Source: Dehalococcoidales bacterium (GTDB lineage: Bacteria; Chloroflexota; Dehalococcoidia; Dehalococcoidales; G020351185). Taken from it: a stretch of 64,000 bases of DNA. A model generated the notes under the pieces. The model was given only the letters and a program-made list of their open reading frames with translations, ran no database searches and was not told where the DNA came from. Shown in pieces: positions 18,864 through 59,042 of the stretch. The position numbers and the translations under genes were made by a program. How positions within the stretch are numbered: position 1 is the first letter of the stretch; each line of letters opens with the position of its first letter. The stretch lies in the NCBI GenBank assembly GCA_963674855.2, contig CAXXST010000001.1, forward strand, positions 458,744 to 522,743. Direction: 5' to 3'.

Positions 18864-18883
18864 ATCAGCCTCCCTTTATTCTA

Positions 18884-19118: not shown

Positions 19119-19144
19119 CCAACTCCATAAAAATTAGCAGGCTC

Positions 19145-32022: not shown

Positions 32023-32099
32023 TGGGGTGAGTGAAGGGATTTGAACCCTCGATCTCCAGGGCCACAACCTGGCGCCTTAACCGCTAGGCCACACTCACC
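32023..32099 (-). tRNA. tRNA-His (anticodon GTG) with encoded G-1 and CCA
   Basis: An extra 5' G pairs with discriminator C. Acceptor GTGAGTG/CACTCAC, anticodon stem CCAGG/CCTGG with loop TTGTGGC, and T loop TTCAAAT. Confidence 0.9.
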
Positions 32100-38080: not shown

Positions 38081-38095
38081 AAAGGAGGGAACGAT

Positions 38096-38689: not shown

Positions 38690-38698
38690 AAGCAATAA

Positions 38699-39613
38699 TT
38701 ATTTAACCAGATGCTGCAGATAGCGGTGCGCCTGCAATGAGGCTTTAGCCCCCTCGCCGGCAGCGATAACAATCTGCTTTTCAGACACATCGGTAACATC
38801 ACCGGCAGCAAAAAAGCCGGCAATACCGGTTTCGCCGGAACAGCCGACGGGTACTTCACCGTATTTGTTCAGCTCTAAAAGGTGCTTAACCGGCTCTGAA
38901 TTGGGTACCATGCCGATTTCAATAAACACACCGCCAACTTTAAGGTTTTTAATCTGCTTGGTATGAATGTTCTGTATAACAATGCCGCTGACAAAGGCAT
39001 TGCCTTCTATCTCCAGCGTTTGGTATTCAAGGTAAATATCCAGATTTTTGGCTTTTTCAAGCTGGTCTATAAGAATTTTGTCTCCGGTAAGCTGCGTTAA
39101 GGAAACCATATCCACGTGGTTGGCAATCTTGACCAGGTCTAGTGCGGCTTCAAGGGCAGAGTTGCCGCCGCCGATTATAGCTACCCTTTGCCTGATGAAG
39201 ACGGGGCCGTCGCAAATGGCGCAGTAGCTTACCCCTTTGCCGGTATATTTTTTTTCACCGGGAACGCCCAGCTTGCGGGACTTCTTGCCGGCGGCATAAA
39301 TAACAGACCGGGAGTTATATTTATCGCCGTCTTCGGTAATTACCTGAAAACCGCTTTTTATCTTTTTAATCCGGCTGACCCTGACGCCGATTTGCTGCTC
39401 TATAGGGTAGCTGTCAAGCTGGGTGGTAAAATTGTCTATAAGCTCAGGTCCTTCAATGAACTGGTAGCCAAGGTAGTTTTCAATGCCGAGGGTGTTGTTT
39501 ATCTGCCCGCCGATGTCATCGCTTATCAAAAGCGCTTTAAGCTGTTTGCGGGCAACATACACGCTGGCGGAAAGACCGGCGGGGCCGGCGCCGATTATTA
39601 TAATATCGTACAT
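38699..39613 (-). CDS. thioredoxin-disulfide reductase-like flavoprotein
   Basis: 304-aa ORF with FAD motif IIIIGAGPAGLSA, redox CxxC in YCAICDG, NADPH motif IIGGGNSALEAA, and GDV. Confidence 0.85.
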   Translation of the reverse strand: MYDIIIIGAGPAGLSASVYVARKQLKALLISDDIGGQINNTLGIENYLGYQFIEGPELIDNFTTQLDSYPIEQQIGVRVSRIKKIKSGFQVITEDGDKYNSRSVIYAAGKKSRKLGVPGEKKYTGKGVSYCAICDGPVFIRQRVAIIGGGNSALEAALDLVKIANHVDMVSLTQLTGDKILIDQLEKAKNLDIYLEYQTLEIEGNAFVSGIVIQNIHTKQIKNLKVGGVFIEIGMVPNSEPVKHLLELNKYGEVPVGCSGETGIAGFFAAGDVTDVSEKQIVIAAGEGAKASLQAHRYLQHLVK

Positions 39614-39751
39614 ATAAAATCCTGCCTTAAATATTACCGGGTTATAAAAGCATATTATAATCAGATTAAAAAGATGTCAAGAAGTATGTATATAAGGCGA
39701 AGCCTGGTATATAATAAAACTATAGCTGGGGATAAAAAAGGAGGCTGAAAA

Positions 39752-40345
39752 ATGGCTTATATGGCGATAGATTACAGTGGCTTGCTGGGAATGCCGGGTT
39801 TCAGTGATACTATGCTGAATAATCACTTCACCTTATATCAGGGATATGTCAACAATACAAATAAGTTAATAGAGACGCTGGCAACGATGTTGAAAGAGGA
39901 TAAAACCGGCACACCGGAATATGCCGAAATAAAGAGGCGCATGGGTTTTGAGTTCAACGGTATGCGCCTGCACGAATTGTATTTCGGCAGCCTTGGCGGT
40001 AAAAAGGCTGTAGATAAAGATTCAGAGATAGCAAAAAAAATGGCAGAGGACTTCGGCAGTTATGAGGAGTGGCAAAAGGATTTTAAGGCAACGGGTATGA
40101 TGCGCGGTATCGGCTGGGTTGTCCTGTATCAGGACAATATAAGCGGCAGGTTGCTGAACCAGTGGATAAACGAACACGAAAGCGGGCATTTAGCCGGCTG
40201 CGCGCCGCTGCTGATAATGGATGTCTTTGAGCATGCCTTTATAACCGATTACAGCCTGAAAAGAGCCGATTATATAGAAGCATTTTTCAGCAATATAAAC
40301 TGGGGCGTGGTAGAGGGGCGGTTAAAATGGAAGCAACGGTTGTAA
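39752..40345 (+). CDS. Fe/Mn-family superoxide dismutase (divergent N-terminus)
   Basis: 197-aa ORF with C-terminal ligand motif MDVFEHAF, a His in NGMRLHELYF, and an N-terminal NNHFTLYQGYVNN that aligns to the HHxKHHxxYVNN region. Confidence 0.8.
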   Translation: MAYMAIDYSGLLGMPGFSDTMLNNHFTLYQGYVNNTNKLIETLATMLKEDKTGTPEYAEIKRRMGFEFNGMRLHELYFGSLGGKKAVDKDSEIAKKMAEDFGSYEEWQKDFKATGMMRGIGWVVLYQDNISGRLLNQWINEHESGHLAGCAPLLIMDVFEHAFITDYSLKRADYIEAFFSNINWGVVEGRLKWKQRL

Positions 40346-41469: not shown

Positions 41470-42930
41470 CTAAAAGCCAAGCATACTGGCGGCAGCTTCG
41501 GTAATCCTGATAACAAGTGTCGGGGTGATGCCGGCAATAAGAACTCCGGCGCAGGCAAGCACCAGCGCAAGTTTAGGCAGAGGCGAAGCTGTGATTTTTT
41601 CATTGATAACGGGCTTGTCAAGCCACATAACCTTTACTACCCTAAGGTAATAGAAAGCCGAAATGACGCTGGCGATGACAGCGATAATTACAAGCCACAA
41701 AAGACCACTTTCCATAGCCCCGCTGAAAATATAAAACTTGGCGATAAAACCGGCTGCCGGTGGAAGCCCAGTCAGCGAAATAAGGCTAAGTGTAAGGGCA
41801 GCTGCCAGCAGCCGGGAACGGCGCCCGATGCCGGCGTAATCTTCAATAAGGCTGCTGTTGAGCTTGTTAGAGATGATTATAACGGCGCTAAAAGCCGCCA
41901 AATCCGCCAGGGTGAAGGCGGTGATATAGAAAAGCAGGTTGCTTTGCAGTTCCAGTGACGCCGTTGAAGACAGCCCGATGGCTGCCAGTCCAATCATAAT
42001 ATAACCGGAATGGGCGATGCCTGAATACGCCAGCATACGTTTTATATTACCCTGCTGAATGGCGAGGATGTTGCCAACCAACATGCCGGCAGCGCTTAAT
42101 ATGGCAAACATAACACCCCAGTCTGAACTAAGCGTTTGAGGCTGGCTGAATGCAGAGAAAAAGATCCTCAGTATTATGGCAAAACCGGCTGCCTTGCTGC
42201 CTACCGAAAGGAAAAGCGTAACCGGCGTCGGTGCGCCTTCATAGACATCCGGCGCCCACATATGGAATGGAACGGCGGCAATCTTAAAGCCAAAGGCGGC
42301 AACCATCAGCACAATGCCAAGCATCAGCCCGGGGCTGTCCATCAGGCTTTGGGCAGACATGCTGCCGATAGTTGCGGATATTTCTGCCAACCCGGTTTCA
42401 CCGGTAAAGCCAAAGACCAGCGCCATTCCGTAAAGCAGCGCCGCCGAGGCGATGCCGCCCAGCAAAACGAATTTCAGGGAAGCTTCTGTTGACTTCTTGT
42501 TCTTGAGAAGCGCAACCAGGATATAGCAGGATATAGCTACCAGTTCAAGAGAAATAAAAGCAGAGATAAGGCTAGCGGAAGAAGCCATAAGTATCATACC
42601 CAGTGTGGCTACCAGCAGCAGGGCATGATATTCAGCCCGGAAACGTGAAAACCTGGCGGAATAATCCACTGAAGCCATAACAACCAGCGCCGAAATCATG
42701 ATAAAAAGAATCTTGAAAAATATGGCGTAGTTATCAAGGGCGAACAGACCATTGAAGATAGACCGGGAATCGCCGCCCCACAGAGCCAGGCTGAAATTAA
42801 GCGCAACCGCCAGACCGGTCAGGCTTATAATGACGGAAAAAGCCCGCCGCCTGACAACAAGGTCAACCAGAATTACCAGCAGGGCGGTAATGGCGATGCT
42901 TATCTCCGGTAAAAACAGGTCAAAATTCAA
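41470..42930 (-). CDS. nuoN: NADH-quinone oxidoreductase subunit N
   Basis: 486-aa polytopic antiporter-like ORF. It is the last gene of the nuo array. Confidence 0.92.
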   Translation of the reverse strand: MNFDLFLPEISIAITALLVILVDLVVRRRAFSVIISLTGLAVALNFSLALWGGDSRSIFNGLFALDNYAIFFKILFIMISALVVMASVDYSARFSRFRAEYHALLLVATLGMILMASSASLISAFISLELVAISCYILVALLKNKKSTEASLKFVLLGGIASAALLYGMALVFGFTGETGLAEISATIGSMSAQSLMDSPGLMLGIVLMVAAFGFKIAAVPFHMWAPDVYEGAPTPVTLFLSVGSKAAGFAIILRIFFSAFSQPQTLSSDWGVMFAILSAAGMLVGNILAIQQGNIKRMLAYSGIAHSGYIMIGLAAIGLSSTASLELQSNLLFYITAFTLADLAAFSAVIIISNKLNSSLIEDYAGIGRRSRLLAAALTLSLISLTGLPPAAGFIAKFYIFSGAMESGLLWLVIIAVIASVISAFYYLRVVKVMWLDKPVINEKITASPLPKLALVLACAGVLIAGITPTLVIRITEAAASMLGF

Positions 42931-42939: not shown

Positions 42940-44439
42940 CTATCCGCCAAAAAATGAAGCTATGGGCGCAATCCCGGTTTGCAAAACATCGGTAAGTATT
43001 GACGGAAAGATACCGACGGCGAACATAACAATAATAAATATAGAGCAATATAATATTTCGGTTTTATCAGCGTCCAGCACCGCATTGAAACGGCTGATGG
43101 GAGAGCCGAAAAAGACACGCTGCACCAGCCAAAGCACATATATAGCCGCCAGCACGATACCAAGCAGGCATATAAAGGTGAAGATATAAGCGTTGCCTAT
43201 CGTGTTGCTGGAAAAAGCCCCAAGGAATATGGAAACCTCGGCGACAAAACCGCTGGTGGAAGGCAGGGCGATGGCGCCCAGCCCGCCGATAATAAAAAAC
43301 AAGGCGATAAGCGGTATCTGGCGTGCCAGACCTCCAAGCTTCTTGATATTGCGCTCGCCGGTATTGTGCATAATAATACCGGTAACGGCAAACAGCAGCC
43401 CGGTGATGATGCCGTGGCTGAACATTTGCAATCCGGCGCCGATAAGGCTGAGTTCACCCAGGGCAAAGATGCCCAGCAGCACAAATCCCATGTGACTGAT
43501 ACTGCTGTAGGCGATAAGCCGCTTGATGTCTGTCTGGCGCAGTGTTACAGCAGCTCCGTAAATGACACTGATGGTCGCCAGCGCCAACAGCAGCGGGGCG
43601 TATTGCTGGGACGTCTGCGGGAAAATGCTGACGCAGACGCGTATCATGCCGTAGCCACCCATCTTGATAAGCGCGCCGGCAAGCATAACACTGGCGGCAG
43701 TGGGGGCATCGGTATGGGCGTCTGGCAGCCAGGTATGCAGGGGGAAGACCGGCAGTTTGACGGCAAAGCCGGTCAGCAGCAGGAAGAAAATGGGCGCTGC
43801 CGGCATAACCGCCTGCGCTACAGCCAGCCCCTGCTGTGAAATATCCACCATATTCAGGCTGCCGGTGGCGAAGTATAAACTTAAAATACCGGCAAGCATA
43901 AGGGCGCTGCCGAAGAGGGTGTATAAAACGTATTTAGTTGCCGAATATTCTTTTCTGCCGCTGCCCCAGATGGATATCAGGAAGAACATCGGGATAACCT
44001 CTATCTCCCAGAAGACGAAGAAAAGCATCAGGTCAAGGGAGCAGAAGACGCCAAGAATGCTGGTTTCCAGCAGCAGCAGCCAGAAGAAATATTGGCGCAC
44101 ACGCAGATTAATCTTCCAGGAAACAAGCACCACGATAAAACCAAGCAGGGTAGTAAGCAGTAAAAGCGGCAGGCTCAAACCGTCAACGCCAAGGTGATAG
44201 TCGGCGTTGATAGCCGGAATCCAGGACAGTGATTCCTCAAACTGCATAACGCCTGCCATTGAAGCAGATCTGTCAAAGGCGGTAAACAGGTAAATGGCAA
44301 TGCCCAGAGGTATAAGGGAGAAAAGGGCGGCAATATATCTGGTAAGGCGTGCAGAAAGCCCCGGTACAAGGGCGATAATCAGCGCCCCTGCCAGCGGCAG
44401 GAATATGATTGCCGAAAGATAACTAAAATCCAAAACCAA
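42940..44439 (-). CDS. nuoM: NADH-quinone oxidoreductase subunit M
   Basis: 499-aa antiporter-like ORF (WLPDAHTDAPTAASVMLAG), located between nuoL and nuoN. Confidence 0.93.
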   Translation of the reverse strand: MVLDFSYLSAIIFLPLAGALIIALVPGLSARLTRYIAALFSLIPLGIAIYLFTAFDRSASMAGVMQFEESLSWIPAINADYHLGVDGLSLPLLLLTTLLGFIVVLVSWKINLRVRQYFFWLLLLETSILGVFCSLDLMLFFVFWEIEVIPMFFLISIWGSGRKEYSATKYVLYTLFGSALMLAGILSLYFATGSLNMVDISQQGLAVAQAVMPAAPIFFLLLTGFAVKLPVFPLHTWLPDAHTDAPTAASVMLAGALIKMGGYGMIRVCVSIFPQTSQQYAPLLLALATISVIYGAAVTLRQTDIKRLIAYSSISHMGFVLLGIFALGELSLIGAGLQMFSHGIITGLLFAVTGIIMHNTGERNIKKLGGLARQIPLIALFFIIGGLGAIALPSTSGFVAEVSIFLGAFSSNTIGNAYIFTFICLLGIVLAAIYVLWLVQRVFFGSPISRFNAVLDADKTEILYCSIFIIVMFAVGIFPSILTDVLQTGIAPIASFFGG

Positions 44440-44448: not shown

Positions 44449-46335
44449 TCAGCCGAATATAAACATTGCCAGTATAATCAGGGTAATACCCAGTATAATA
44501 AAGATACCGTAAAGCTGAAGCTGCCCGCTATGTGTTTTTCTTGCACGCCTGCCGGCGTTGTTTATACTGGCGGCGGCTCCGTTTACAAGCCCGTCAATCC
44601 CATGGCTGTCAATAAAGCTTAAACCGGAAAACAGCCCTTCGTAGAAAATTTTCCTGGCGATAATTCTTTCGTAAAGCTCATCAAGCAGATACTTACGGGA
44701 TAACAATGAATACACCGGCGAAAACAGCTTGCCAATGCGTTCTGCCGAAAGCCACCTGGCGCTGTATATGGCATAAGACAGAAGAACACCGGCGCCTGCC
44801 ATAATCAGCGATACCCATGTAAGCGGGTGGGAGAAAATGCCGAAAAAGCCTTCAATAAATCCGTGCGTTTCGCCGTGACCCATAAAGCTGCCAAACCAGC
44901 CGCTGACATTCAGCAGACCGGTAACAATCGCCAGCACTGCCAGAACAACCATCGGCAGCGTCATCACTGCTGATGATTCGTGCGGTTTACCCTCGCCGCG
45001 GTAGCTGCCGCCGAAGGTAAGAAAGACGACACGGAACATATAGAAAGCCGTCATAAAAACGGTAATCAGGGCAAGTACGAAAAGGACAGGCTGATTCTCC
45101 AGTGCGCTGGCGAGAATTTCGTCCTTGCTCCAGAAACCGGCTAAAGGCCAGATGCCGATGATACTCAGCGAGGCGATAAGAAAAGTGGCGTAGGTCCAGG
45201 GCATAATCTTTTTCAGCCCGCCCATACGGCGCATATCAAACGTGCCGGTGGCGTGGTTGACGCTGCCGGCGCCCAGGAACAGAAGCGCCTTGAAGAAGGC
45301 GTGATTAAACAGATGAAATATGCCGACAGCCACACCGCCGGTGCCAAGCCCCAGCATCATATACCCAAGCTGGCTGATGGTGGAATATGCCAGCACGCGT
45401 TTTATGTCCGTCATAACAAGCGCTATGCCGGCGGATAAAATAGCCGTAACAGCACCGATAATGGAAACGGTTAAAAGAGCCTCTGGTGAATGCTCAAACA
45501 GTGGATACATACGGGCAACCAGGAAGATACCGGCGGCAACCATGGTGGCGGCGTGTATCAGCGCGCTGACGGGGGTAGGCCCTTCCATGGCGTCCGGCAG
45601 CCAGACGTGCAGTGGGAACTGGGCAGACTTGCCGGCAGCCCCCATAAAGATACCGATGGCAGCCCAGGTGAGTGCTGCGCCGCCAAGCGTTCCGGCAACC
45701 GCCAGCCCGTGAAGCTGGGCGATATCCAGCGTGCCTGTTTGTGAAAATAATAATAATATAGCCGCCAGAAAACCGAAATCGCCGATACGGGTGATAATAA
45801 AAGCCTTTTTAGCCGCATTAGCTGCTGCCGGGCGGTTGAACCAGAAACCAATAAGCAGATAAGAACAAAGACCAACAAGCTCCCAGAAAAAGAACATCAT
45901 AAGCAGGTTATCAGCCAATACCAGCCCAAGCATAGAGGCGGTAAAGAGAGACATAAAGGCGTAATAACGGTGATAGCCGGGGTCGTTGTGCATATAGCCC
46001 TGTGAATATATCTGCACCATCAGGCTGACAATAGTAACAACCAGCAGCATAATAGCAGTAAGCGAATCCATTATGATACCCAGCCGTATATCTATAACGC
46101 CGTCAATAAACAGCCATTTGAATCCTGGAATCACAAGCTCATGATGAGGTGATGAAATAACGCTGAACAATGCCCAGAAGGCAAGGCAGGTTGAAGCAAG
46201 GATTGCGCCTATAGAGAGATAGCCGCTGAACTTTGGATTACCCAACAGGCGGGTTATAAAAGATATAACTATGAATGAAGCCAGCGGCAACAGGAATATC
46301 AGCCAGACCAGTTCATTCGGCATTGTAACTTGCAT
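44449..46335 (-). CDS. nuoL: NADH-quinone oxidoreductase subunit L
   Basis: 628-aa antiporter-like ORF (WLPDAMEGPTPVSALIHAATMV) with the C-terminal lateral-helix extension. Confidence 0.94.
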   Translation of the reverse strand: MQVTMPNELVWLIFLLPLASFIVISFITRLLGNPKFSGYLSIGAILASTCLAFWALFSVISSPHHELVIPGFKWLFIDGVIDIRLGIIMDSLTAIMLLVVTIVSLMVQIYSQGYMHNDPGYHRYYAFMSLFTASMLGLVLADNLLMMFFFWELVGLCSYLLIGFWFNRPAAANAAKKAFIITRIGDFGFLAAILLLFSQTGTLDIAQLHGLAVAGTLGGAALTWAAIGIFMGAAGKSAQFPLHVWLPDAMEGPTPVSALIHAATMVAAGIFLVARMYPLFEHSPEALLTVSIIGAVTAILSAGIALVMTDIKRVLAYSTISQLGYMMLGLGTGGVAVGIFHLFNHAFFKALLFLGAGSVNHATGTFDMRRMGGLKKIMPWTYATFLIASLSIIGIWPLAGFWSKDEILASALENQPVLFVLALITVFMTAFYMFRVVFLTFGGSYRGEGKPHESSAVMTLPMVVLAVLAIVTGLLNVSGWFGSFMGHGETHGFIEGFFGIFSHPLTWVSLIMAGAGVLLSYAIYSARWLSAERIGKLFSPVYSLLSRKYLLDELYERIIARKIFYEGLFSGLSFIDSHGIDGLVNGAAASINNAGRRARKTHSGQLQLYGIFIILGITLIILAMFIFG

Positions 46336-46359: not shown

Positions 46360-46665
46360 TTACCATTTCAAAAGGTTAATTTTAGAGGCGTCTATAGTTT
46401 CATGACGCCGGTAAATAGCTATAATTATCGCCAAGCCGATGGTTACTTCTGCAGCGGCCACCAGAATGCTGAAAATAGAAAATACCTGACCCGTAAGCAG
46501 TGTTGGCGTGATATAGCGGGAAAAAGCCACCAAAGCGATGTTTGCCGCATTCAGCATAAGTTCAATGCACATCAGGATAACCACGGCGCTGCGCTTGGAG
46601 AGCGCGCCGTAAAGACCGATGCAAAAGATAACGGCTGAAAGCACAAGATAATGCTCTAATGACAC
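46360..46665 (-). CDS. nuoK: NADH-quinone oxidoreductase subunit K
   Basis: 101-aa ORF with three TM helices. The conserved Glu residues are in context (CIELMLNA, AAAEVTIGLA). Confidence 0.93.
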   Translation of the reverse strand: MSLEHYLVLSAVIFCIGLYGALSKRSAVVILMCIELMLNAANIALVAFSRYITPTLLTGQVFSIFSILVAAAEVTIGLAIIIAIYRRHETIDASKINLLKW

Positions 46666-46666: not shown

Positions 46667-47155
46667 TTATTTATCCCTCACTATGGTTATTGCGCCAATT
46701 ATGGTTGCCAGCAGCAGCATTCCGCCAATCTCCACCAGCAGGAACATACCGTCACGGCTGAAAAGTATATTAGCCAGTGTGGAAGTGGTGGTTTCAAGCG
46801 GCGCTTCGGCGGAAACGGGCCAGGCTGTGTTGAGCATGGCAAAAATGGTTATCCCCAATAAAACGGCGCAAATTATAAAAGACGGCAGCCTGAGCTTGTT
46901 GGAAAGGTTGCCGTGCTGCACCTCTTTGGTTAACATAATAGAAAGTATTATAAGAATGGCGATGGCGCCGACATATATAAGCACCTGCACGGCAGCCAGA
47001 AAGTCTGCGCTCAACGTAACGAAGATACCGGCGACTGCCAGAAAGCAGACCACCAGAGCCAATGCTGAGCGGAAGATGTTAGGCAGCAGAACAACAGCTA
47101 AAGCAGAAGCTGTCATCAGCGTTGCCAGCACCCAGAAAGCGATTTCTAATCCCAT
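46667..47155 (-). CDS. nuoJ: NADH-quinone oxidoreductase subunit J
   Basis: 162-aa polytopic ORF (VQVLIYVGAIAILI), located between nuoI and nuoK. Confidence 0.9.
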   Translation of the reverse strand: MGLEIAFWVLATLMTASALAVVLLPNIFRSALALVVCFLAVAGIFVTLSADFLAAVQVLIYVGAIAILIILSIMLTKEVQHGNLSNKLRLPSFIICAVLLGITIFAMLNTAWPVSAEAPLETTTSTLANILFSRDGMFLLVEIGGMLLLATIIGAITIVRDK

Positions 47156-47185: not shown

Positions 47186-49069
47186 CTATTTTTTATCTAT
47201 AAGCAGGCTCTGCTGCGGCAGACCGGCGGCGATATCCGGGCGGTAGTAGCCGCTGGGTTTCACCCTGTCCGGCGTCAGCAGGTCCTCTTTATTCAGTTTT
47301 TGTTCTTCAAAGCGGTAGGTAGCCCGTTCATAGCTGTAGCCCATGTAAAGGGCATCAAAGGGGCAGGATTCAACGCAAAGACCGCAGTAAATACACATCC
47401 CGCCATTAAGGTTGTATTCTTTAACTTCATAGGCGAGGTCGCAGCGCAGGCAGCGGCTGGTTTCTTTTATGGCGGAATCCTCATCCCAGCCGATTTCAAC
47501 CCCATCAAAGCTGCTAATGCGCCGTTTGTGTTCAATGGCGCAGGTGGGAGGGCGGATGCCGTTATCCGGTTTGCCGCAACGTTCCGGTATTTCTTCAGCC
47601 GGAGCAAAAGTCTCTTCTATATTGCCGCTGCCGCCAAGGTATTTGTCTATAGAAACAGCAGCCTGCCGCCCGTGGGCGATGGCTTCTATGGCGGTTGCCG
47701 GTCCGGTTACGGCGTCTCCGCCGGCAAATATGTATTCGCTGCCGGTGGCGGAAAGGGTATCCGGGTTAACAATAATCCTGTTGCTTTTGGCGGTTTCCAG
47801 CCCGAAGGAATCGGAAATATACGGCATCTGGCTGGTGGCGGCGATGATGTTATCCAGAGGGATATTAAACTGGCTGCCTTCAATCGGTTCGGGACGGCGC
47901 CTGCCGCTGGAATCGGCTGCCACCAGCTTCATACGCACGCATTCAAGCGTTAAACCGTCTTTATTATGGGATACTTTAGACGGCATCGCCAGAAAGATAA
48001 ACTTTATACCTTCGTCAATGGCTTCCTCAACCTCTTCAGGGCTGGCGGGCATTTCATAACGGCTGCGCCGGTAGATTATGGATACCTCTTCAGCTCCCAG
48101 CCGCAGCGCTGTTCTGGCGGAATCCATGGCGGTATTCCCGCCGCCGATAATCGCCACCCGGCTGCCCAGTTCCACTTTGTTGCCCAGGTTGACCTCGCGC
48201 AGGAAATCTATACCGCGAAGGACACCGGGGACATCTTCGCCCGGCACACCCAGACCAATCGCCTGGTGCGCGCCAACGGCAACAAAAACGGTGTCAAATC
48301 CCTGCTGTGCAAGGCTTTCGGGGCAGTCTATCTTCTTACCTGTAATAATCTCAACACCGATGTCGGTTATCTCTTTAATATCCGCTTTTAGCCTGTCTTT
48401 TGGCAGGCGGTAATCCGGGATGCCATAGCGCAGCATGCCGCCCGGTTCCGGCAGAGCTTCAAAAATGGTAACACTGTGCCCGCCGAGTTTAGCCAGATAA
48501 TAAGCCGCGCTGAGCCCAGCCGGACCGGCGCCGATTATTGCCACCTTCCGATGGCTTTCAGGGGCGCATTTTGAATTCTGCTTCCACAAATCATTGCCGT
48601 TATCCACAGCAAAACGTTTTAACATGCGGATGGCAATCGGCTGGTCTATGATGCCGCGGCTGCATGATGATTCACAGGGGTGGGCGCAGATATAGGCGCA
48701 AACAGAAGGGAAAGGAATCTTCTCTCGCACTACGGCTAAGGCTTCGGATGGCTTCCCCTGCCCTATAAAACGGATATATCTGGCGGCATCCACGTGGGAG
48801 GGGCAAGCTTGGCTGCAGGGCGCCGGAATAACACCTTTTTTGCCCTTTCCAGAAGTCTTTATCTCAATGCAACCGGTGGGGCAGCTATCGGCGCAGGTAT
48901 GGCAGCCGATGCATTTATCAGCAGACCAGGCAAGGATATTGCCGCGTATCCGCTTTGAAACGGTCAGCTTTTCCTCTGGGTATTGCGTGGTTATCGGCTT
49001 CCTGAAAAGATGCTTAAAGGTAACCGCCATACCCCTGGCTATGCCGTTGCCGTATCTTTCAAGCCGCAA
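47186..49069 (-). CDS. nuoI: NuoI (2x[4Fe-4S] ferredoxin subunit) with an inserted GltD-like NAD(P)H/FAD/Fe-S oxidoreductase module
   Basis: 627-aa ORF in the nuoI slot. It has the NuoI N-terminus (KPITTQYPEEK, CIGCHTCADSCP) and C-terminus (CIYCGLCVESCP). These are separated by about 480 aa carrying a Cys-rich region, VAIIGAGPAGLSAA, VAIIGGGNTAMDSA and FAGGDAV. Confidence 0.85.
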   Translation of the reverse strand: MRLERYGNGIARGMAVTFKHLFRKPITTQYPEEKLTVSKRIRGNILAWSADKCIGCHTCADSCPTGCIEIKTSGKGKKGVIPAPCSQACPSHVDAARYIRFIGQGKPSEALAVVREKIPFPSVCAYICAHPCESSCSRGIIDQPIAIRMLKRFAVDNGNDLWKQNSKCAPESHRKVAIIGAGPAGLSAAYYLAKLGGHSVTIFEALPEPGGMLRYGIPDYRLPKDRLKADIKEITDIGVEIITGKKIDCPESLAQQGFDTVFVAVGAHQAIGLGVPGEDVPGVLRGIDFLREVNLGNKVELGSRVAIIGGGNTAMDSARTALRLGAEEVSIIYRRSRYEMPASPEEVEEAIDEGIKFIFLAMPSKVSHNKDGLTLECVRMKLVAADSSGRRRPEPIEGSQFNIPLDNIIAATSQMPYISDSFGLETAKSNRIIVNPDTLSATGSEYIFAGGDAVTGPATAIEAIAHGRQAAVSIDKYLGGSGNIEETFAPAEEIPERCGKPDNGIRPPTCAIEHKRRISSFDGVEIGWDEDSAIKETSRCLRCDLAYEVKEYNLNGGMCIYCGLCVESCPFDALYMGYSYERATYRFEEQKLNKEDLLTPDRVKPSGYYRPDIAAGLPQQSLLIDKK

Positions 49070-50180
49070 TCTTTTTGCCTCCGGGATTAAATAATCGGGA
49101 TAGAAGGATAATGAACACTATCATGAATAACAGGTTTATAATCATAAGTGACCATGCAGGCGCGCCGGGCCAGAAAACAACCTGGGCGCTGGTGATAAGC
49201 AGGTTTATAAGCGCCAGCGGCAACAAAAACTTCCATGCGAAAGACATAACCTGGTCTATGCGCAGCCTGGCGAGGGTTGCGCGTATCCAGACAACCAGGA
49301 AGAAAACGGCAAAGACCTTTATCAGAAACCAGATGAAAGGCGGCAGAAAAGGTCCGTTCCAGCCGCCGAGGAAAAGGGTGGTTACGATAACCGAAAGAAG
49401 GGCGGCTTCGGAATATTCTGTAAGAAAAAACATGGCAAACTTCATGCCGGAAAGCTCTATGTTAAAGCCGGATACCAGTTCGGAATCTGCTTCCAGCAGG
49501 TCAAAAGGGCATCGGTTAATTTCGGCAAGCGAAGACGTAAAGTAAATAAAGAAACCCAGAGGCTGGAGAAGAATAAAGGGAACGCTTTGCGCATTGACGA
49601 TATCGGTAAGCGAAAGCGAGCCGGTAATAAGCACAACACCAACGATAGAAAGAACCATTGGGATTTCATAGCTGATAAACTGGGCGGTATCACGCATGGC
49701 TGCGATGAGTGAATACTTATTGTTGGAAGACCAGCCTGCCATAAAAATACCGATGGAAGCAACTGAACTGACGGCAAGAACATAGAGGATGCCGATATTA
49801 AGGTCAACCAGCGATGCCCCGTCCCAGAAGGGGATAACGGCGAAAGCCAGTAAAACCGGTGTAAAAGCCACTATCGGCGCCAGCCAGAAAACCAGCTTGT
49901 CACTTTTGGCGGGGACATTATCCTCTTTGGTAAGGATTTTAAGAACATCGGCTATCGGCTGAAAGATGCCGGCAGGTCCAGAGCGGTTGGGACCATAACG
50001 TGCCTGAAAACGTCCAATCAGGCGGCGTTCCAGCCAGATGAATATGATAACAGAACCCAGAACGAATATAATGATGCCGATGACATAAACAAAGAGATGG
50101 GAAAGAAAGCCGCCGGGCCAATCCGGGGCTACTGCCATAGAAGCAGAGCAGGCATTGAAAGCCTGTGGGGCAGATATCAT
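49059..50180 (-). CDS. nuoH: NADH-quinone oxidoreductase subunit H
   Basis: Polytopic ORF with ERRLIGRFQARYGPNR and the IFQPIADVLKIL motif. The start is set at the ATG at 50180, overlapping the nuoD stop (TAATG), giving 373 aa. Confidence 0.92.
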   Translation of the reverse strand: MISAPQAFNACSASMAVAPDWPGGFLSHLFVYVIGIIIFVLGSVIIFIWLERRLIGRFQARYGPNRSGPAGIFQPIADVLKILTKEDNVPAKSDKLVFWLAPIVAFTPVLLAFAVIPFWDGASLVDLNIGILYVLAVSSVASIGIFMAGWSSNNKYSLIAAMRDTAQFISYEIPMVLSIVGVVLITGSLSLTDIVNAQSVPFILLQPLGFFIYFTSSLAEINRCPFDLLEADSELVSGFNIELSGMKFAMFFLTEYSEAALLSVIVTTLFLGGWNGPFLPPFIWFLIKVFAVFFLVVWIRATLARLRIDQVMSFAWKFLLPLALINLLITSAQVVFWPGAPAWSLMIINLLFMIVFIILLSRLFNPGGKKIAA

Positions 50181-51283
50181 TACCTGTCCACCTCTCCCAG
50201 GCATATGTCAATGCTCCCCAGTGTTATCATAACGTCGGCTATCTTATAGCCAATGACCATTTCACGCAGAACGGTCAGGTTTATAAGGGAAGGTGGCCTG
50301 ACATGAAAGCGATAGGGCTTATCCGAGCCGTCTGAAACAAGGTAAAACCCCAGTTCGCCCTTGGGAGATTCTATGGCGGCATAGGCTTCGCCGGCGGGTG
50401 GCATAAGGTGGAGAGGGGTGCGGTTAAGAACTTCTCCCTTTGGTATTTGCTCTACCGCCTGTTCAATAATGCGCAGGCTCTGGCGCATCTCAGCCATTCT
50501 TATACGGTAGCGGTCATAGCAATCACTATTACTGCCGGTGGGTATATCAAATTCAAAGCGGTCATAGACGCAGTATGGGTTTGCCTTGCGGATATCCCAT
50601 TCAACGCCGCAGGCACGCAGTGTCGGCCCGCTAACGGAGCTGTTAATAGCCGATTCTCTGGTAAGAATGCCAACGCCCTTGGTGCGCGCCAGCAGTATCT
50701 CGTTCTGCGCCAGAAGCTGGTCGTATTCATCCAGATAACCCGGCATCTCTTTAAGGAACTTCTTAAGCGCCGGAAAGAACTCTTCGGGGACATCGTGGCT
50801 GATGCCGCCGAAACGCATATAGTTATAAAGAAGGCGTTGCCCGCAGACCATCTCAAAAAGGTCAATAATTTTTTCTCTTTCGCGGTACATATACATAAAG
50901 GGCGTAAAGAAGGCGCCCAGGTCATTAACAAAAGTGCCGACGGCTATAAGGTGGCTGACTATGCGCTGAAGCTCTGCCATAATCACCCGAAGATATTCAG
51001 CCCTCTCTGGAACCTGAATACCGGCAAGCTTCTCAACTGCCAGCACATAGGGCAGGTTGTTGCTCATTGAAGCCACATAATCCAGCCTGTCGGTAAAGGG
51101 GATGTTTTGTTTGTAGGTGCGCCCTTCTGCCAGTTTTTCAATACCGCGATGCAGATAACCGAAGACTGGCTCCAGGTCAACCACCACTTCGCCGTCAAGG
51201 GTAGCACGCATACGGAATACACCGTGCGTGCTGGGGTGCAGCGGTCCCAGGTTAATTATAAAAGGTTCTGTTTTAAGCGTCAT
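50180..51283 (-). CDS. nuoD: NADH-quinone oxidoreductase subunit D
   Basis: Contains [12 protein letters not shown] and the C-terminal [10 protein letters not shown] chose the internal Met at 51283 (367 aa) because the track start lies inside nuoC. Confidence 0.93.
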
Positions 51284-51722
51284 GGCAGAAGTCCTTGCGC
51301 AATGGATGCCCCTCAAAGCCGTCCCAAAGTAAAATGCGCTTCAAATTGGGGTGGCTTTCAAACCTGATGCCGAAAAGATCGTAGATTTCACGCTCTTGAA
51401 AGTCAGCGCTGCGCCATAAACCGCTAAGCGATGGCAGGCTGGCAGCTTCCTTATTGGTAAGGCGCACCTTCAGGGTAAGGCTGTGGTTATGCTTAAGCGA
51501 AACAAGGCTGTAAACCAGTTCAAAATAATCATTGTAATCAACGGCGATGATATAATTAAGGCAGTTAAAATCAAAGCCGGTGGTATCTTTCAGGTAAGCG
51601 GCGATGCCGGTAAGGGTTCGGCTGTCCACAAGAATATAGTCATCGCCGTTTTCAACTATGCTTTCAGCAAATTCCTTCTTTAACTCACTGGCTATTTCAC
51701 TGCCGCAAAGGGGTTTTGTCAT
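51273..51722 (-). CDS. nuoC: NADH-quinone oxidoreductase subunit C
   Basis: 149-aa ORF with the 30-kDa subunit motif [20 protein letters not shown]. Confidence 0.92.
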
Positions 51723-51726: not shown

Positions 51727-52317
51727 TTACTCTTTGGAAATACTCCTCTTGGAAATCTTTTTGCGCAGCATCTCTATGCCGTGCAGCAGGGTTTCGGGGC
51801 GTGGCGGGCAGCCGGGGATATAGACATCTACCGGCACGATGTGGTTATATCCCGGAACCACTGAATAAGAGCCTTTAAACAATCCGCCGCTGATACCACA
51901 GGCGCCCATGGCGATTACCCACTTTGGCTCTGCCATTTGGTCATACAACCGCTTGACCTGGGGCGCCATTTTCCAGGTTAGCGTGCCGGCAGTAATCATT
52001 AAATCAGCCTGGCGCGGTGAAGCGCGCAGTATCTCCATACCGAAACGGGAGATATCAAAGCGATGAGAAGAAGCGCTGATAACCTCAAAGGCGCAGCAGG
52101 CGGGAAAACAGATTACAGGCCAGAGAGATGTCCTGCGAGACCAGTTAAGCACGGCATCTACGGTGGTTGTCAGTACATTGCGTTGCAACTCTTCGGTAAG
52201 CCAGCTATCAGGGTCTTCAATGGCAAACTGGCTGCCAGCTTTCAGCGATTCTATGACCACGCCCTCGTATTTGTCCAGATCTTTATCAGAATAGGGCTGT
52301 TTCTTATCTATTTCCAT
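51727..52317 (-). CDS. nuoB: NADH-quinone oxidoreductase subunit B
   Basis: 196-aa ORF carrying the cluster N2 ligands ([19 protein letters not shown]). It has an N-terminal extension of about 40 aa relative to typical NuoB. Confidence 0.93.
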
Positions 52318-52679
52318 TCCAGAGCCTTTTTGCGCCAGGCGTACAGATAGCCGATGACGATAATAAGAATAAAAACCATGGCGGCAAAAAAGCCGAATGC
52401 TCCCAAGCTCTTAAGCTCAACCGCCCAGGGATACAGAAAGATAACCATAACATCCAGGGCGATAAGCAACAGCGCGAAGAAATAGTAGCGGAAGTTAAAC
52501 TGCACCCAGGAGCGGCCGATGGTTTCCATGCCGCATTCAAAGGTTTGCGCCTTTACCGGATTTGGCTTTCTTGGCACTATCCTGAGCAGCCCCAGGATAA
52601 CGGGCAGCAGAATAAGAAAGGACGAAAATATAGAAGCAATCAACAGAAAAAGTGCTATATAACTGAAATTTTCTAACAA
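52308..52679 (-). CDS. nuoA: NADH-quinone oxidoreductase subunit A
   Basis: Three-TM NuoA core ([12 protein letters not shown]-like [11 protein letters not shown]). The start is set at the TTG at 52679, preceded by AGGAG, giving 123 aa. The track ORF extension to 52889 looks spurious. Confidence 0.85.
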
Positions 52680-52844
52680 TGGCAGTCTCCTATAGCGATG
52701 AGATTCTGCTGGAAACACGAAGCAAAGCAGTATATCACTTTTAGTGTTTTGAGACAAGCAGCCTGCCTTAACAAATCTGTAATGCACGCTGAATATAAGG
52801 CAGTATGCAATATATTGAGAGGGAATAAGGGTATTTCTGGCATA

Positions 52845-52884
52845 TTGACAAAGGGTTATTTTACAGCTAGACTTCAAGTCTTGA
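52845..52884 (+). promoter_or_regulatory. candidate promoter plus overlapping palindromes upstream of CetZ-like gene 1
   Basis: TTGACA (52845..52850), a 17-nt spacer and TAGACT (52868..52873). The palindromes AGACTTcAAGTCT (52869..52881) and TCAAGtCTTGA (52874..52884) overlap the -10/+1 region. Confidence 0.35.
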
Positions 52885-52903
52885 AACACAAGGAGGTGGC
52901 AAA

Positions 52904-54079
52904 ATGAAACTGGTCGTAGTTGGCTTTGGGCAGTGCGGCGGCAGGATTGCAGATGAGTTTGAAAGACTGGATAGAAGGGCGCGCAGCCTGCGCGGCATAG
53001 AGATAATTATAGACGCCTTTGCTGTTAATACAGATTCAACCGATATGTCCGGATTACACTCAATAAAACCGGATTACCAGCACCGCATACTTATAGGTTC
53101 CGGTACCACCCATGGTCATGGCGTAGCCAAGATAAATGAAGTTGGCGCTGATATAGCCAGGGAAGACTCTGATAAGGTAATAGACGCCATGAGGGGCAAC
53201 CAGAGGCTCTTTGAAACGGATGCCTTTTTGCTGGTTGCCAGCGCTGCTGGCGGTACTGGTTCCGGGGCGGTATCGGTGATAGCTAAGGCATTGAAGGAAC
53301 GCTTCGCTGAAAAGCCGGTATATGCTCTTATAGCGCTGCCTTTTGAGCATGAAGAGGTAAATGAAGAAAGGGCTTTATATAATACGGCTGTCTGCCTTAA
53401 ATCGGTCTATTCTATAGCAGATGCCGTTATACTGGTGGATAACCAGAGATACGTAAGAAAAGACTATTCATTGCAAAGCAATATGACGAAGATAAACCAG
53501 CTTATAGTAGAGCCGTTCTTTGATATGCTGTGTGCCGGTGAAGAGAAAAAGAAACGGCACATTGGCGCCAAGACGCTGGACGCCGGCGATATAATACAAA
53601 CTCTCTGTGGATGGACGGCTATCGGTTACGGCGAAATAAAGTTACCGCTTATTACATTGCCTACAGACTGGTCAAAGAATTTCAGAAAGCGCGGCACCAA
53701 GACGCACAAGGGGCTGGAAGCGATGGACCAGGCGCTGAGTGATATGTCTATAGAGTGCAATCCGCAAGATGTTAACCGGGCGCTCTACCTGCTTTCGGCG
53801 CCGGTTAAAGAGATGAACATGGACATGGTAAAAGAGATGGGAGACTATCTGCGGACTTTTGCGCCGCAGGCAATTATAAGGAATGGAGACTATCCCAGGG
53901 AAAAGGGCTTGCTGGATGTTAGCGTTATACTGTCTGAGCTCAGCGATGTTGAAAAGGTAAGGTATTATTACGAGAAATCAGCGGCACTGGCGCAAGAGAT
54001 GAAGAGAAGGCAAAAAGCGAAGACTTCAAAGGCTGCCCTAACCGAAGATGCAGGCAAGGATGTGCCGACACTGCTTTAG
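52904..54079 (+). CDS. tubulin/FtsZ-superfamily GTPase, CetZ-like (paralog 1)
   Basis: 391-aa ORF with T1 loop VVGFGQCGGRIADEF, T4 signature AAGGTGSG, VDNQRY, a T7-like LDAGDIIQTL, and GDYP in the C-terminal domain. The SD AAGGAGG is present. Confidence 0.8.
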   Translation: MKLVVVGFGQCGGRIADEFERLDRRARSLRGIEIIIDAFAVNTDSTDMSGLHSIKPDYQHRILIGSGTTHGHGVAKINEVGADIAREDSDKVIDAMRGNQRLFETDAFLLVASAAGGTGSGAVSVIAKALKERFAEKPVYALIALPFEHEEVNEERALYNTAVCLKSVYSIADAVILVDNQRYVRKDYSLQSNMTKINQLIVEPFFDMLCAGEEKKKRHIGAKTLDAGDIIQTLCGWTAIGYGEIKLPLITLPTDWSKNFRKRGTKTHKGLEAMDQALSDMSIECNPQDVNRALYLLSAPVKEMNMDMVKEMGDYLRTFAPQAIIRNGDYPREKGLLDVSVILSELSDVEKVRYYYEKSAALAQEMKRRQKAKTSKAALTEDAGKDVPTLL

Positions 54080-55088: not shown

Positions 55089-55270
55089 CATAAAAAGGAA
55101 TATAGTTGATTACCAGCCCTTCGAGTTGCCCCTCCTAACGGCTTTTGGTCTATGGAATGCAACCGATAAGGTACAAGGGGAAACCTTTATGCCGCCCGTA
55201 TTTGGAAAGGAGGGTGAACAGGATAGCGGATTTCCTGTTTATAACGCCTCCATAGGGGGCGTTTTGTTTA
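55089..55270 (+). promoter_or_regulatory. candidate Moco (molybdenum cofactor) riboswitch with terminator, upstream of moaA
   Basis: It lies downstream of TTGACA-17-TATATT (55060..55088). Long-range pairing CCCTCC...GGAGGG is possible, and the 3' element GCCGCCCGTATTTGGAAAGGAGGG resembles the conserved Moco-motif 3' half as I recall it. A terminator hairpin AACGCCTCC-ATA-GGGGGCGTT plus TTGTTTAT follows (55243..55270). Confidence 0.5.
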
Positions 55271-55324: not shown

Positions 55325-56308
55325 ATGACAGGACTTTTGGATAAATACCACCGGCGAATTGATTATATGCGGATTTCGGTAACTGACCGCTGTAACCTGT
55401 GTTGTATCTATTGCACTGAACGAGATATGCCCCACCTGACGCATGAAGACGTCTTACGCTATGAAGAGATAGAAAAAATAGTGCAGGCGGCTGCCGCGAT
55501 GGGTGTTAAAAGCCTGCGCCTGACAGGCGGTGAGCCTTTGGTAAGACCGAATCTCGGTAAGCTGGTTAAAATGCTGACTAACATTGAAGGGATTGATGAT
55601 ATCAGCCTGACAACCAATGGTACAATGCTTGCCGGATGCGCCCGGGAATTGAAAGAAGCCGGTCTTATGAGGGTCAATATAAGCCTGGATACATTCAAGC
55701 CGGAAAAATTCAAGCAGATAAGCGGCGCTGATAAACTGAAGGATGTATTTGAAGGCATTGAAGCCGCTAAAAAAGCCGGGTTGATGCCGGTTAAGATAAA
55801 TACAGTGGTTATGCGTGGTATAAATGATGATGAGTTGCTTGATTTTGCTGATAAAACAAAGGAAGATGACTGGCATATAAGATTTATAGAAAAGATGCCG
55901 CTGGTGGCAAGCGAACCCGGGAATAACGATATGGTATCCATAGAAGAAATGATGGCTATTATACAGAAGGAATATGGAAAACTGGAGCCGTGCATGTCAA
56001 AATCCGGGAAAGGGCCGGCGAAATATTACAGGTTGCCGGGCGCCAAGGGAACACTGGGTTTCATAGGCCCGGTAACGGATTGTTTCTGCGCCACCTGTAA
56101 CCGCTTCCGCCTGACCGCAGATGGCAGATTACGACCATGCCTGCTGGAAGAGGATGAGGTAGATATAAAAGGGCCGTTGCGTGCCGGCGCCAGCATAGAA
56201 GAACTGGCAAAATTGATGCAGCAGACGGCTGAACTGAAAAGGGAACGTCATCGCATCGGTAAGGACTTTGTTTCCGGTAAACGTAAGATGTGGCAGATTG
56301 GCGGATAG
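55325..56308 (+). CDS. moaA: GTP 3',8-cyclase MoaA
   Basis: 327-aa ORF with the radical-SAM motif CNLCCIYC and a C-terminal auxiliary cluster CFCATCNRFRLTADGRLRPC. Confidence 0.95.
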   Translation: MTGLLDKYHRRIDYMRISVTDRCNLCCIYCTERDMPHLTHEDVLRYEEIEKIVQAAAAMGVKSLRLTGGEPLVRPNLGKLVKMLTNIEGIDDISLTTNGTMLAGCARELKEAGLMRVNISLDTFKPEKFKQISGADKLKDVFEGIEAAKKAGLMPVKINTVVMRGINDDELLDFADKTKEDDWHIRFIEKMPLVASEPGNNDMVSIEEMMAIIQKEYGKLEPCMSKSGKGPAKYYRLPGAKGTLGFIGPVTDCFCATCNRFRLTADGRLRPCLLEEDEVDIKGPLRAGASIEELAKLMQQTAELKRERHRIGKDFVSGKRKMWQIGG

Positions 56309-56329
56309 TATATAATAGGGGCTGAAATT

Positions 56330-56812
56330 ATGGATGAACTGAGTCATGTAAATAAAAAAGGTGAAGCGCGAATGGTGGATGTGTCGCAGAAGGATGATAC
56401 GCTGCGGAAAGCGGTGGTAAGCGGCGGCGTCAGGATGAAACCTTCAACGCTGGAAATGATAAAGCAGAACCAGATAAAGAAGGGGGATGTGCTTTCGGTA
56501 GCCAGGGTAGCCGGCATCATGGCGGCAAAGAAAACTCCAGAGCTTATCCCGATGTGCCACCCGATTATTATAGATAATATAACCATAGATTTTTCCTTTG
56601 AGGGTGCAGATTACATAAAGATAACCGCCGGCGCTAAAAGCAGCGGTAAAACCGGTGTAGAGATGGAAGCCCTGCTGGCGGCGACGGTTGCCGCCGCAAC
56701 CATATACGATATGTGCAAGGCGGTTGACCGCGGCATGGTCATAGAGAAAGTTTGCCTGGAATCAAAAAGCGGCGGGAAAAGCGGTGTTTTCAAGAGGTGC
56801 GAAAGTGGCTAA
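56330..56812 (+). CDS. moaC: cyclic pyranopterin monophosphate synthase MoaC
   Basis: 160-aa ORF with the MoaC pattern (KGDVLSVARVAGIMAAKKTPELIPMCHP, TGVEMEALLA). Confidence 0.94.
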   Translation: MDELSHVNKKGEARMVDVSQKDDTLRKAVVSGGVRMKPSTLEMIKQNQIKKGDVLSVARVAGIMAAKKTPELIPMCHPIIIDNITIDFSFEGADYIKITAGAKSSGKTGVEMEALLAATVAAATIYDMCKAVDRGMVIEKVCLESKSGGKSGVFKRCESG

Positions 56813-58941: not shown

Positions 58942-59042
58942 TACAATAAATATTATACACATACAACAAAAATGGCGCAAGAAAACTTGAGTTTTACATG
59001 GCTGTCAGTATATTATAAAGGCTGCAACCTGGAGGTAAATAA

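Follow-up and report, generated by a model that had tools for sequence, protein, structure and literature searches.

An inserted flavin/Fe-S module, predicted to bind NADP(H), in the NuoI subunit of an 11-subunit complex I from uncultured Dehalococcoidia

The stretch of DNA analysed here, referred to as the window, comprises 64,000 nucleotides of a Dehalococcoidales bacterium (contig CAXXST010000001.1 of assembly GCA_963674855.2, positions 458,744 to 522,743; all coordinates below are those of the window). On its minus strand lies a complex I operon in the order nuoABCDHIJKLMN, in which the place of nuoI is taken by a gene for a much longer fusion protein (Table 1). The eleven nuo genes are tightly packed, with spacings between -44 and +30 nt. 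The fusion gene (47186-49069, minus strand) is a single uninterrupted open reading frame (ORF) of 627 codons without any internal stop. It begins with a TTG codon at 49069, where the starts of its homologues coincide, and a GGAGG sequence lies 8 nt 5' of this codon. The gene is overlapped by nuoH over 11 nt and nuoJ starts 30 nt past its end, and no compositional break is seen across the ORF. A preliminary description of this DNA, made from the letters alone, had placed a 627-residue ORF in the nuoI slot between an overlapping nuoH and a downstream nuoJ, without stating the strand, and had proposed that it encodes a NuoI interrupted by a GltD/SudA-like flavin and Fe-S module. The ORF is intact in this arrangement, and all motifs quoted in that description were found at the places given there.

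Both ends of the fusion protein belong to NuoI. The YPxEK signature of the NuoI N-terminus reads YPEEK at residue 30, and both CxxCxxCxxxCP ferredoxin motifs are present, the first (CIGCHTCADSCP) at residues 53-64 (C53 to P64) and the second (CIYCGLCVESCP) at residues 559-570 (C559 to P570). By homology with Thermus Nqo9 we take the first motif to supply three ligands of cluster N6a and one of cluster N6b. The NCBIfam models for NuoI match two separate stretches, residues 10-75 and 548-601, with E-values of 2e-27 to 1e-24; the best of these models stay below their curated cut-offs (95.8 vs. 163 and 86.2 vs. 113), because 465 residues split the ferredoxin domain. When the ends of the fusion are compared to solved structures, Thermus Nqo9 and cyanobacterial NdhI score with ∼73 bits (∼2e-19), whereas the equivalent subunits of MBH, MBS and formate hydrogenlyase reach merely 39-45 bits. 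These motifs, together with the location of the gene between nuoH and nuoJ, identify the host part as NuoI. In an AlphaFold2 model, the strands 67-77 and 544-553 flank the insert, which itself has a predicted local distance difference test (pLDDT) value of ∼90, and the NuoI parts have values of 36-68. Aligned with Thermus Nqo9, the two strands would correspond to the ordinary hairpin between the ferredoxin motifs of NuoI, with the module replacing its tip loop.

The insert (residues 79-543, 465 residues) is a GltD/NfnB-type module with sites for flavin adenine dinucleotide (FAD), NAD(P) and two [4Fe-4S] clusters. A Pfam scan, as proposed in the preliminary description, returned Fer4_20 over residues 83-157 (4.2e-18) and Pyr_redox_2 over residues 175-467 (1.9e-32), with single ferredoxin motifs at the flanks. 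Cysteines of the Fer4_20 region are found in PAPCSQACP (residues 82-90) and CAHPCESSC (128-136), and a further CxxC pair (RCLRC, 539-543) past the flavin domains, not mentioned in the preliminary description, represents the displaced start of Fer4_20. The closest matches of residues 79-545 in sequence as well as in fold are the NADP(H) domains of BfuA proteins (9bov_A, 8oh5_C and 9n5u_A, 41-43% identity), followed by NfnB, the small subunit of glutamate synthase and dihydropyrimidine dehydrogenase. In a permutation test, residues 506-548 were placed before residues 79-482 and the result was aligned to NfnB of T. maritima: the re-ordered sequence matched without a break over residues 16-461 (305 bits), vs. 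295 bits and a span of merely residues 46-464 for the native order. The corresponding element (...EAxRCLxC), which opens Fer4_20 in NfnB and GltD, follows the flavin domains both here and in the BfuA relatives. Judged by these alignments, the module is a circularly permuted form of the GltD/NfnB type. What had been described as a GltD/SudA-like module is thus a complete and conserved flavin/Fe-S NAD(P)H module, but not a plain copy of GltD or SudA, an identity that is ruled out by the permutation and by the greater proximity to Nfn-Bfu (∼43% identity to the NADP(H) domain of NfnABC/StnABC).

The seven cysteines of the module align with C39, C42, C47, C51, C90, C96 and C100 of NfnB, the first two coming from behind the flavin domains, and the roles of the NfnB residues are known from a published list of cluster ligands (PMC7596348). 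On the basis of the permuted alignment, C540, C543, C85 and C136 would be the counterparts of the four distal-cluster ligands of NfnB, and C89, C128 and C132 those of three ligands of its proximal cluster. As a consequence of the circular permutation, both ends of the insert would meet at the distal cluster, the one farthest from the flavin, which must face NuoI, a geometry that suits an insertable redox module.

A homology search over 5.8 billion proteins retrieved 120 clusters at 56-100% identity to the window protein, at least 118 of which are full-length (612-648 residues) and share the same junctions. Further fusion clusters were added by a second search seeded with the most divergent member, which returned only proteins from metagenome-assembled genomes (MAGs) and no entries from Dehalococcoides or Dehalogenimonas. 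In a library clustered at 50% identity the whole query is covered by one representative alone, and we therefore regard the proteins as one coherent fusion family. Fusion clusters come from assemblies held in NCBI, ENA, JGI and Logan, and those that carry a name are MAGs of Chloroflexota, Dehalococcoidia or Dehalococcoidales. Among 30 fusion proteins with 56-83% identity to the window protein, all eight NuoI cysteines and all seven module cysteines are invariant, as are the Glu following C132 and both dinucleotide-binding motifs (GAGPAG and GGGNTAMD). The fusion is under purifying selection. The gene order is common to the window and four independent contigs (L081-L084), with a CetZ-like tubulin gene, the nuo operon with the fusion in the nuoI position, TatD and endonuclease III; genes for a DUF5679 protein and a superoxide dismutase come next in those relatives whose contig reaches that far.

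The source is evidently a metagenome-assembled contig, and automated annotation labels the fusion proteins only as "FAD-dependent oxidoreductase" or "formate dehydrogenase beta subunit", both of which would be in line with an assembly chimera, a frameshift-masked pseudogene or a mis-called ORF. The recurrence of full-length proteins with the same junctions across four sequence collections, the identical synteny in four independent contigs, the good Shine-Dalgarno sequence, the open frame and the even composition make such an artefact hardly conceivable, and we consider this explanation effectively refuted. Neither a frameshift or chimera nor degraded FAD- or NAD(P)H-binding residues, which the preliminary description had named as grounds for giving up its proposal, were observed.

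The residues Y333-R334-R335, likewise not mentioned in the preliminary description, are invariant in the 30-sequence alignment, and the YRR pattern is found in 115 of the 118 full-length clusters. This motif forms the pocket for the 2'-phosphate of NADPH in NfnB, and it tracks the use of NADP(H) vs. NAD(H) in kinetically characterised DsrL enzymes (PMC7596348). Since the motif is kept, the nucleotide bound by the fusion is likely NADPH rather than NADH, which narrows the substrate from NAD(P)H, as originally suggested, to NADPH. One sub-family of the NuoI fusion (P0121, a cluster of 46 members) has a diverged nucleotide-binding subdomain without YRR, reading VHVACLE with an acidic residue at the strand end, and might use NADH or another substrate.

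As a homologue of NfnB, whose FAD bifurcates, and with its nearest solved relatives residing in bifurcating complexes, the module might also split electrons as in NfnAB, sending one via the [4Fe-4S] chain to NuoI and the other to a second, high-potential partner docking on the module. The published marks of bifurcating NfnB proteins are an upstream nfnA gene, Arg333 (P. furiosus NfnI-B numbering) and a long N-terminus, and proteins with Fer4_20 and Pyr_redox_2 that lack bifurcation marks are plain ferredoxin:NADP+ oxidoreductases (PMC12221290). In the window the gene upstream of the fusion is nuoH, and no FNR-like or nfnA gene was found in or beside the operon, here or in the relatives examined. 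The position of the NfnB-specific Arg333 is occupied by Ser343 (S/N/D/A across the fusion family). For the homologous FAD domain of Nfn-Bfu, Schut et al. predicted an NADP(H) site that feeds an Fe-S wire and not the site of bifurcation (PMC9304861). Moreover, the low-potential branch of NfnB is made up of its two [4Fe-4S] clusters, and there would be no gain from such a branch with quinone as the acceptor. NfnB-type bifurcation was rejected on the published marks, and we hold bifurcation by this FAD to be highly improbable.

The remainder of the complex is of the respiratory kind. NuoD scores 378 bits with Thermus Nqo4 (2fug_4), vs. 195-219 bits with MBH/MBS, and in the alignment to 2fug_4 it keeps HPSTHG and DRLDY including the quinone-headgroup ligands His38 and Tyr87 (Thermus numbering); Ni-Fe cysteines are absent. 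Because of these scores and ligands, and of the N2 cysteines in NuoB, we assign the complex to quinone-type complex I and not to the Mbx or hydrogenase type; an Mbx-type complex is ruled out by the quinone-type NuoD. Searches by tblastn with NuoE-, NuoF- and NuoG-like queries found no such genes in the operon or in the 64-kb window, and yielded only ferredoxin-motif noise in the ±10 kb flanks of seven related loci. A second nuoI was not found in the window either. The claim that the complex lacks NuoEFG thus holds as far as the operon and the window go.

We consider it rather probable that the fusion is a working NuoI equipped with a non-bifurcating NADP(H)-FAD-2x[4Fe-4S] module, and the complex a self-contained, in principle reversible NADPH:quinone oxidoreductase. 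The module would sit at the tip of the beta-hairpin between the two [4Fe-4S] motifs of NuoI. NADPH would dock in the second Rossmann fold, with its YRR pocket, and reduce the FAD, from which electrons would leave singly via the proximal and then the distal cluster of the module; from the latter they would reach N6a/N6b in NuoI, then N2 in NuoB and, at the end of the path, a NuoD/NuoH-bound quinone. Proton pumping by the NuoL/M/N arm would be unchanged, and the fused module would take the role held elsewhere by NuoEFG. Stand-alone proteins composed of Fer4_20 and Pyr_redox_2 act as ferredoxin:NADP+ oxidoreductases, and NuoI belongs to the ferredoxin-type domains. The architecture, the cofactor motifs, their conservation, the gene context and the recurrence of the fusion are observed here; that electrons can pass from the module to N6a/N6b, that quinone is used and which way the electrons flow physiologically is inferred. 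A complex without the usual NADH-input module thereby probably gains an electron entry or exit point of its own. All computational evidence gathered supports the interpretation of the preliminary description, in which NAD(P)H oxidation is wired directly into NuoI.

Several points weigh against an NADPH:quinone oxidoreductase of this design. All carriers of the fusion are uncultured, and the respiration of cultivated Dehalococcoides is described as quinone-free (PMC6005880). In place of E117, the Glu that ligates the proximal cluster in NfnB, the fusion has Lys151 (LKRF), so that this position holds neither the Glu nor a Gln as fourth ligand; a Lys is also present here in 9bov_A and 9n5u_A, and StnC reads LKSF. 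The window covers 64 kb, and the contig to which it belongs is at least 525 kb long, so that a separate nuoEFG or a canonical nuoI may be encoded elsewhere. In the AlphaFold2 model confidence is low for the NuoI parts, as one would expect of a subunit predicted in isolation, and with the module carried on a two-stranded hairpin of ∼10 residues the distance from the distal cluster to N6a/N6b could be too large. The geometry of the module relative to N6a/N6b is the weakest link.

Complex I being reversible, the same wire may also run backwards, with the module as the exit: NADP+ would be reduced either by ferredoxin docking on NuoI, which would make the complex a pumping ferredoxin:NADP+ oxidoreductase, or from quinol through reverse electron transport driven by the proton-motive force, in order to provide NADPH for biosynthesis, the usual use of the NADPH pool. 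A site of NAD(P)+ reduction was indeed proposed by Degli Esposti for the gltD-like subunit of Thermotoga mbx-like operons (PMC4758237), and the stand-alone relatives of the module run from ferredoxin to NADP+ in vitro (PMC12221290). As the direction is not readable from the sequence and the cultivated relatives are reported to respire without quinones, we keep the reverse direction as the main rival explanation. It nevertheless appears unlikely to us, given that NuoD carries both quinone-headgroup ligands and is far nearer to true complex I than to MBH/MBS, that the operon is not linked to genes for ferredoxin-docking subunits or PFOR, and that electron transfer from NADPH to menaquinone should be thermodynamically favourable.

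A second type of NuoI-GltD fusion was found in the 50%-identity library, where proteins of 621-653 residues match the query from residue 7-11 on. Here the order is NuoI N-terminus (YPxEK, RFRG), module, RCLxC, ferredoxin motif 1, motif 2 and NuoI tail, such that the last cysteine of the distal cluster stands 4 residues before the first NuoI cysteine, and NuoI models match the C-terminal ferredoxin domain. A profile search gave ∼43 clusters of this type, nearly all with YRR; the named ones are MAGs of Actinomycetota/Actinobacteria and Firmicutes, and others are unclassified MAGs. The gene lies between nuoH and nuoJ in all five loci examined (5/5). The modules of the two architectures are 42-45% identical and no nearer to each other than each is to Nfn-Bfu or other relatives, which suggests that they are separate acquisitions. 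With only 4 residues between the distal cysteine and the NuoI cysteine, as in the PRK12771/DsrL-like family, direct cluster-to-cluster contact is very likely in the second type; by analogy it is plausible in the form found in the window. Two operons with second-type fusions, L086 (11196-17962, an unclassified metagenome contig) and L090 (12655-21077, an Actinobacteria MAG), contain four or five antiporter-like genes and a small ORF of 107-108 codons after nuoK, and lack the usual L-M-N order.

Conservation also bears on the possibility that the insert is idle in respiration, serving as a redox sensor, a regulator or a structural cap in place of the N-module, or surviving as a decaying relic, with soluble ferredoxin or flavodoxin as the true electron donor. 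For most 11-subunit complexes ferredoxin is the presumed donor, or no donor has been established, the geometry of the link is itself a matter of inference, and the P0121 sub-family with its diverged nucleotide-binding subdomain could be read in this sense. However, no cofactor ligand and neither of the dinucleotide motifs varies over the range of identities sampled, the fusion recurs as a second architecture in other phyla, and the maintenance of 465 idle residues within a tightly packed operon would be surprising. An idle insert is accordingly improbable in our view.

The module is also hosted by proteins other than NuoI, namely by HdrA-like proteins, by the NuoG-like BfuA subunits and by a membrane-anchored protein of Chloroflexi (P0146). 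A scan of genome contigs, saturated by the generic pattern GGGN(T/S/A)A(M/I)D, listed at least 80 other GltD-like loci with up to 54% identity, none of which is a NuoI fusion. Three candidates, L003, L017 and L022, whose matches had seemed to reach into the NuoI residues, were rejected as NuoI fusions, since they encode HdrA-like proteins that carry the module as an insert and lie in Hdr/Etf/NuoEF-like contexts; those of L003 (9722-12448) and L017 (8303-11032) have ∼908 residues and are encoded beside NuoE/F-like or Etf and Hdr/Mvh genes. P0146 (encoded in the region 7787-13798 of L087) consists of ferredoxin motif 1, GltD module, RCLRC and ferredoxin motif 2, with junctions exactly as in the fusion of the window, but has a C-terminal membrane helix and no NuoI parts. 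Its gene is flanked by those for ApbE and an FMN_bind/Fer4_5 membrane protein, a gene for a reductive dehalogenase follows, and P0146 may represent an NAD(P)H-fed route to RdhA. It is tempting to speculate that the fusion of the window was born of a recombination between nuoI and a P0146-like gene with a split ferredoxin.

Among characterised systems, Nfn-Bfu/StnABC offers the closest relatives of the module. Its BfuA subunits (NfnA of C. saccharolyticus, 9bov_A; StnC of S. ovata, 8oh5_C; NfnA of T. sibiricus, 9n5u_A) contain the same permuted NADP(H)-FAD-2[4Fe-4S] module, with RCLxC behind the flavin domains, and as in the fusion the module is embedded in a different Fe-S protein, where it provides a plug-in NADP(H) site for a cluster wire. 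Their host, however, is a NuoG/HydA-like subunit of soluble bifurcating BfuABC complexes with NuoE/F-like partners, whereas in the window the module resides in the NuoI of an 11-subunit nuo complex of the membrane, with no Bfu or NuoEFG genes nearby. The fusion is no BfuA protein: only the GltD-like part (residues 78-545 of the query) aligns, there is no NuoG/HydA-like scaffold with a [2Fe-2S] N-terminal domain and A-clusters, and NuoE/F/G-like genes were not found in the window. The presumed task is that of the canonical N-module NuoEFG, i.e. a dinucleotide-oxidising flavin and an Fe-S relay to N6a in NuoI, but the folds are unrelated. NuoEFG consists of three separate subunits, with flavin mononucleotide in NuoF and with 2Fe-2S clusters, and oxidises NADH; the fusion has FAD in a domain with two Rossmann folds, 4Fe-4S clusters only and an NADPH signature, all in one polypeptide with NuoI. 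It is therefore functionally N-module-like without being a member of the NuoEFG families.

Proteins of the PRK12771-like/DsrL type have the same chain of NAD(P)H, FAD, two [4Fe-4S] clusters and a ferredoxin domain, and YRR marks their NADP(H)-specific members. Their domain order is that of the second fusion type from Actinomycetota and Firmicutes, in which NuoI represents the ferredoxin domain, whereas the window protein has its first ferredoxin motif ahead of the module. In contrast to the fusion they are soluble, serving DsrAB or other partners. The PRK12771-like NCBIfam model NF009410 matches the window protein over residues 83-576 only, with 491.9 bits and thus below its cut-off of 516. 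Other inputs for 11-subunit cores are FpoF/FqoF of archaeal F420H2 dehydrogenases and the ferredoxin site of cyanobacterial NDH-1 formed by NdhS/V/O, which are separate subunits with other substrates (F420H2 and ferredoxin, respectively). To our knowledge none of these is fused into NuoI.

What donates electrons to 11-subunit complex I has not been settled, and attempts to find a partner protein shared by these complexes have failed (PMC3144371, PMC11238625); papers on Dehalococcoidia and on 11-subunit complexes leave the donor open or suggest FpoF-like or ferredoxin inputs (including PMC6005880 and PMC3144371). A NuoI-GltD fusion was not encountered in the literature searched, the coverage of which leaves out most subscription journals, and the architecture seems to be undescribed so far, in agreement with the first reading of the sequence. 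A partial and nearest precedent, which that reading had missed, is a one-paragraph note by Degli Esposti (2015) on a gltD-like flavoprotein in the NuoI position of mbx-like operons of Thermotoga and proteobacteria, read as an NAD(P) site (PMC4758237). Compared by the published description only, these operons likewise have a GltD-related NAD(P)-binding flavoprotein in the NuoI slot of a complex-I-related membrane complex. They are, however, of the Mbx/Mrp type, with NuoD homologues that have vestigial Ni-Fe cysteines, and are thought to oxidise ferredoxin, whereas the operon of the window is a standard nuoA-N set with a quinone-type NuoD. Two elements of the design are already known: complex I cores whose input modules can be exchanged, and NADP(H) modules of the GltD type that have been plugged into Fe-S scaffolds.

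Table 1. Features of the nuo operon and of the fusion gene (coordinates in nt of the window; residue numbers refer to the 627-residue protein)
Feature	Position	Strand	Remark
nuoA	52308..52889	-	listed ORF probably overlong
nuoB	51727..52317	-	N2 cysteines present
nuoC	51273..51722	-	
nuoD	50180..51316	-	quinone ligands of Thermus Nqo4 (H38, Y87) kept
nuoH	49059..50204	-	
GGAGG ribosome-binding site	49078..49082	-	within the 3' end of nuoH, 8 nt upstream of the TTG start
nuoI fusion gene (627-residue NuoI-GltD fusion)	47186..49069	-	stop codon 47186-47188
NuoI N-terminal part, residues 1-78	48836..49069	-	amphipathic helix, YPEEK, first CxxCxxCxxxCP motif, first hairpin strand
Ferredoxin motif 1, C53-C56-C59-C63-P64	48878..48913	-	
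Fer4_20-type domain, residues 79-160	48590..48835	-	predicted ligands: C85/C136 distal cluster, C89/C128/C132 proximal cluster
FAD and NAD(P) binding domains, residues 175-482	47624..48547	-	GAGPAG 180, GGGNTAMD 309, FAGGDA 448
YRR motif, residues 333-335	48065..48073	-	NADP(H) 2'-phosphate pocket, predicted from the meaning of the motif in NfnB
Linker and displaced N-terminal Fer4_20 element, residues 483-543	47441..47623	-	ends in RCLRC; C540/C543 align with NfnB C39/C42
NuoI C-terminal part, residues 544-627	47189..47440	-	second hairpin strand, second CxxCxxCxxxCP motif (47360-47395), NuoI tail
nuoJ	46667..47155	-	
nuoK	46360..46665	-	
nuoL	44449-46335	-	assigned by gene order, protein size and Proton_antipo families in syntenic genes of relatives
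nuoM	42940-44439	-	assigned as nuoL
nuoN	41470-42930	-	assigned as nuoL

The nuoA ORF as listed has 193 codons and a GTG start. Since its Pfam match is restricted to residues 101-192 and NuoA of the relatives has 122-123 residues, the true start probably lies near 52676. Divergent from the adjoining nuoA is a gene for a CetZ-like tubulin (52904-54079, plus strand; Pfam Tubulin and CetZ_C), which also stands beside the nuo operon in L081-L084. CetZ is regarded as an archaeal family, and a conserved bacterial copy is unexpected. Further along, a molybdenum-cofactor riboswitch (55107-55228, plus strand) precedes moaA and moaC (55325-56812, plus strand), with a MoeA gene and a MogA-like gene on the opposite strand (57236-58980). 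Downstream of the nuo operon (35603-40345) are genes for a small protein with a molybdopterin oxidoreductase domain, a flavoprotein resembling thioredoxin reductase, an Fe/Mn superoxide dismutase and, judging by its translation only, a Cu-type P-type ATPase; these metal and oxidative-stress genes hint at exposure to oxygen in an organism of a mostly anaerobic class. The window also contains a ribosomal-protein region (14311-19217, minus strand) with an L10 leader (15333-15467), three tRNAs (18884-19217) and, by size and context, probably the gene for EF-Tu (17661-18863), as well as two further tRNAs at 31732-32098.

For the 11-subunit complex I, whose partner has been sought in vain, the fusion names a candidate directly, as the input module is here covalently part of NuoI, and the question of the missing donor is reduced to one protein of 69 kDa. 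Mislabelled fusions may also cause genomes to seem devoid of nuoI in metabolic reconstructions. Whether a so far unrecognised class of respiratory complex I exists, in which a FAD/Fe-S module of the GltD type within NuoI oxidises NADPH instead of NADH or ferredoxin, is in our estimation evenly balanced; such a class would have arisen at least twice, at two different points of NuoI, would be the standard form both in a large group of uncultured Dehalococcoidia and in some anaerobic Actinomycetota and Firmicutes, and would answer the question of the 11-subunit donor in these organisms. Should the proposed wiring hold true, a flavin module without any relation to NuoEFG is able to drive complex I, and the Q and P modules of the latter would once more prove to be a platform for interchangeable input modules. 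Abundant subsurface Dehalococcoidia would then couple their NADPH pool, and not that of NADH, to the membrane.

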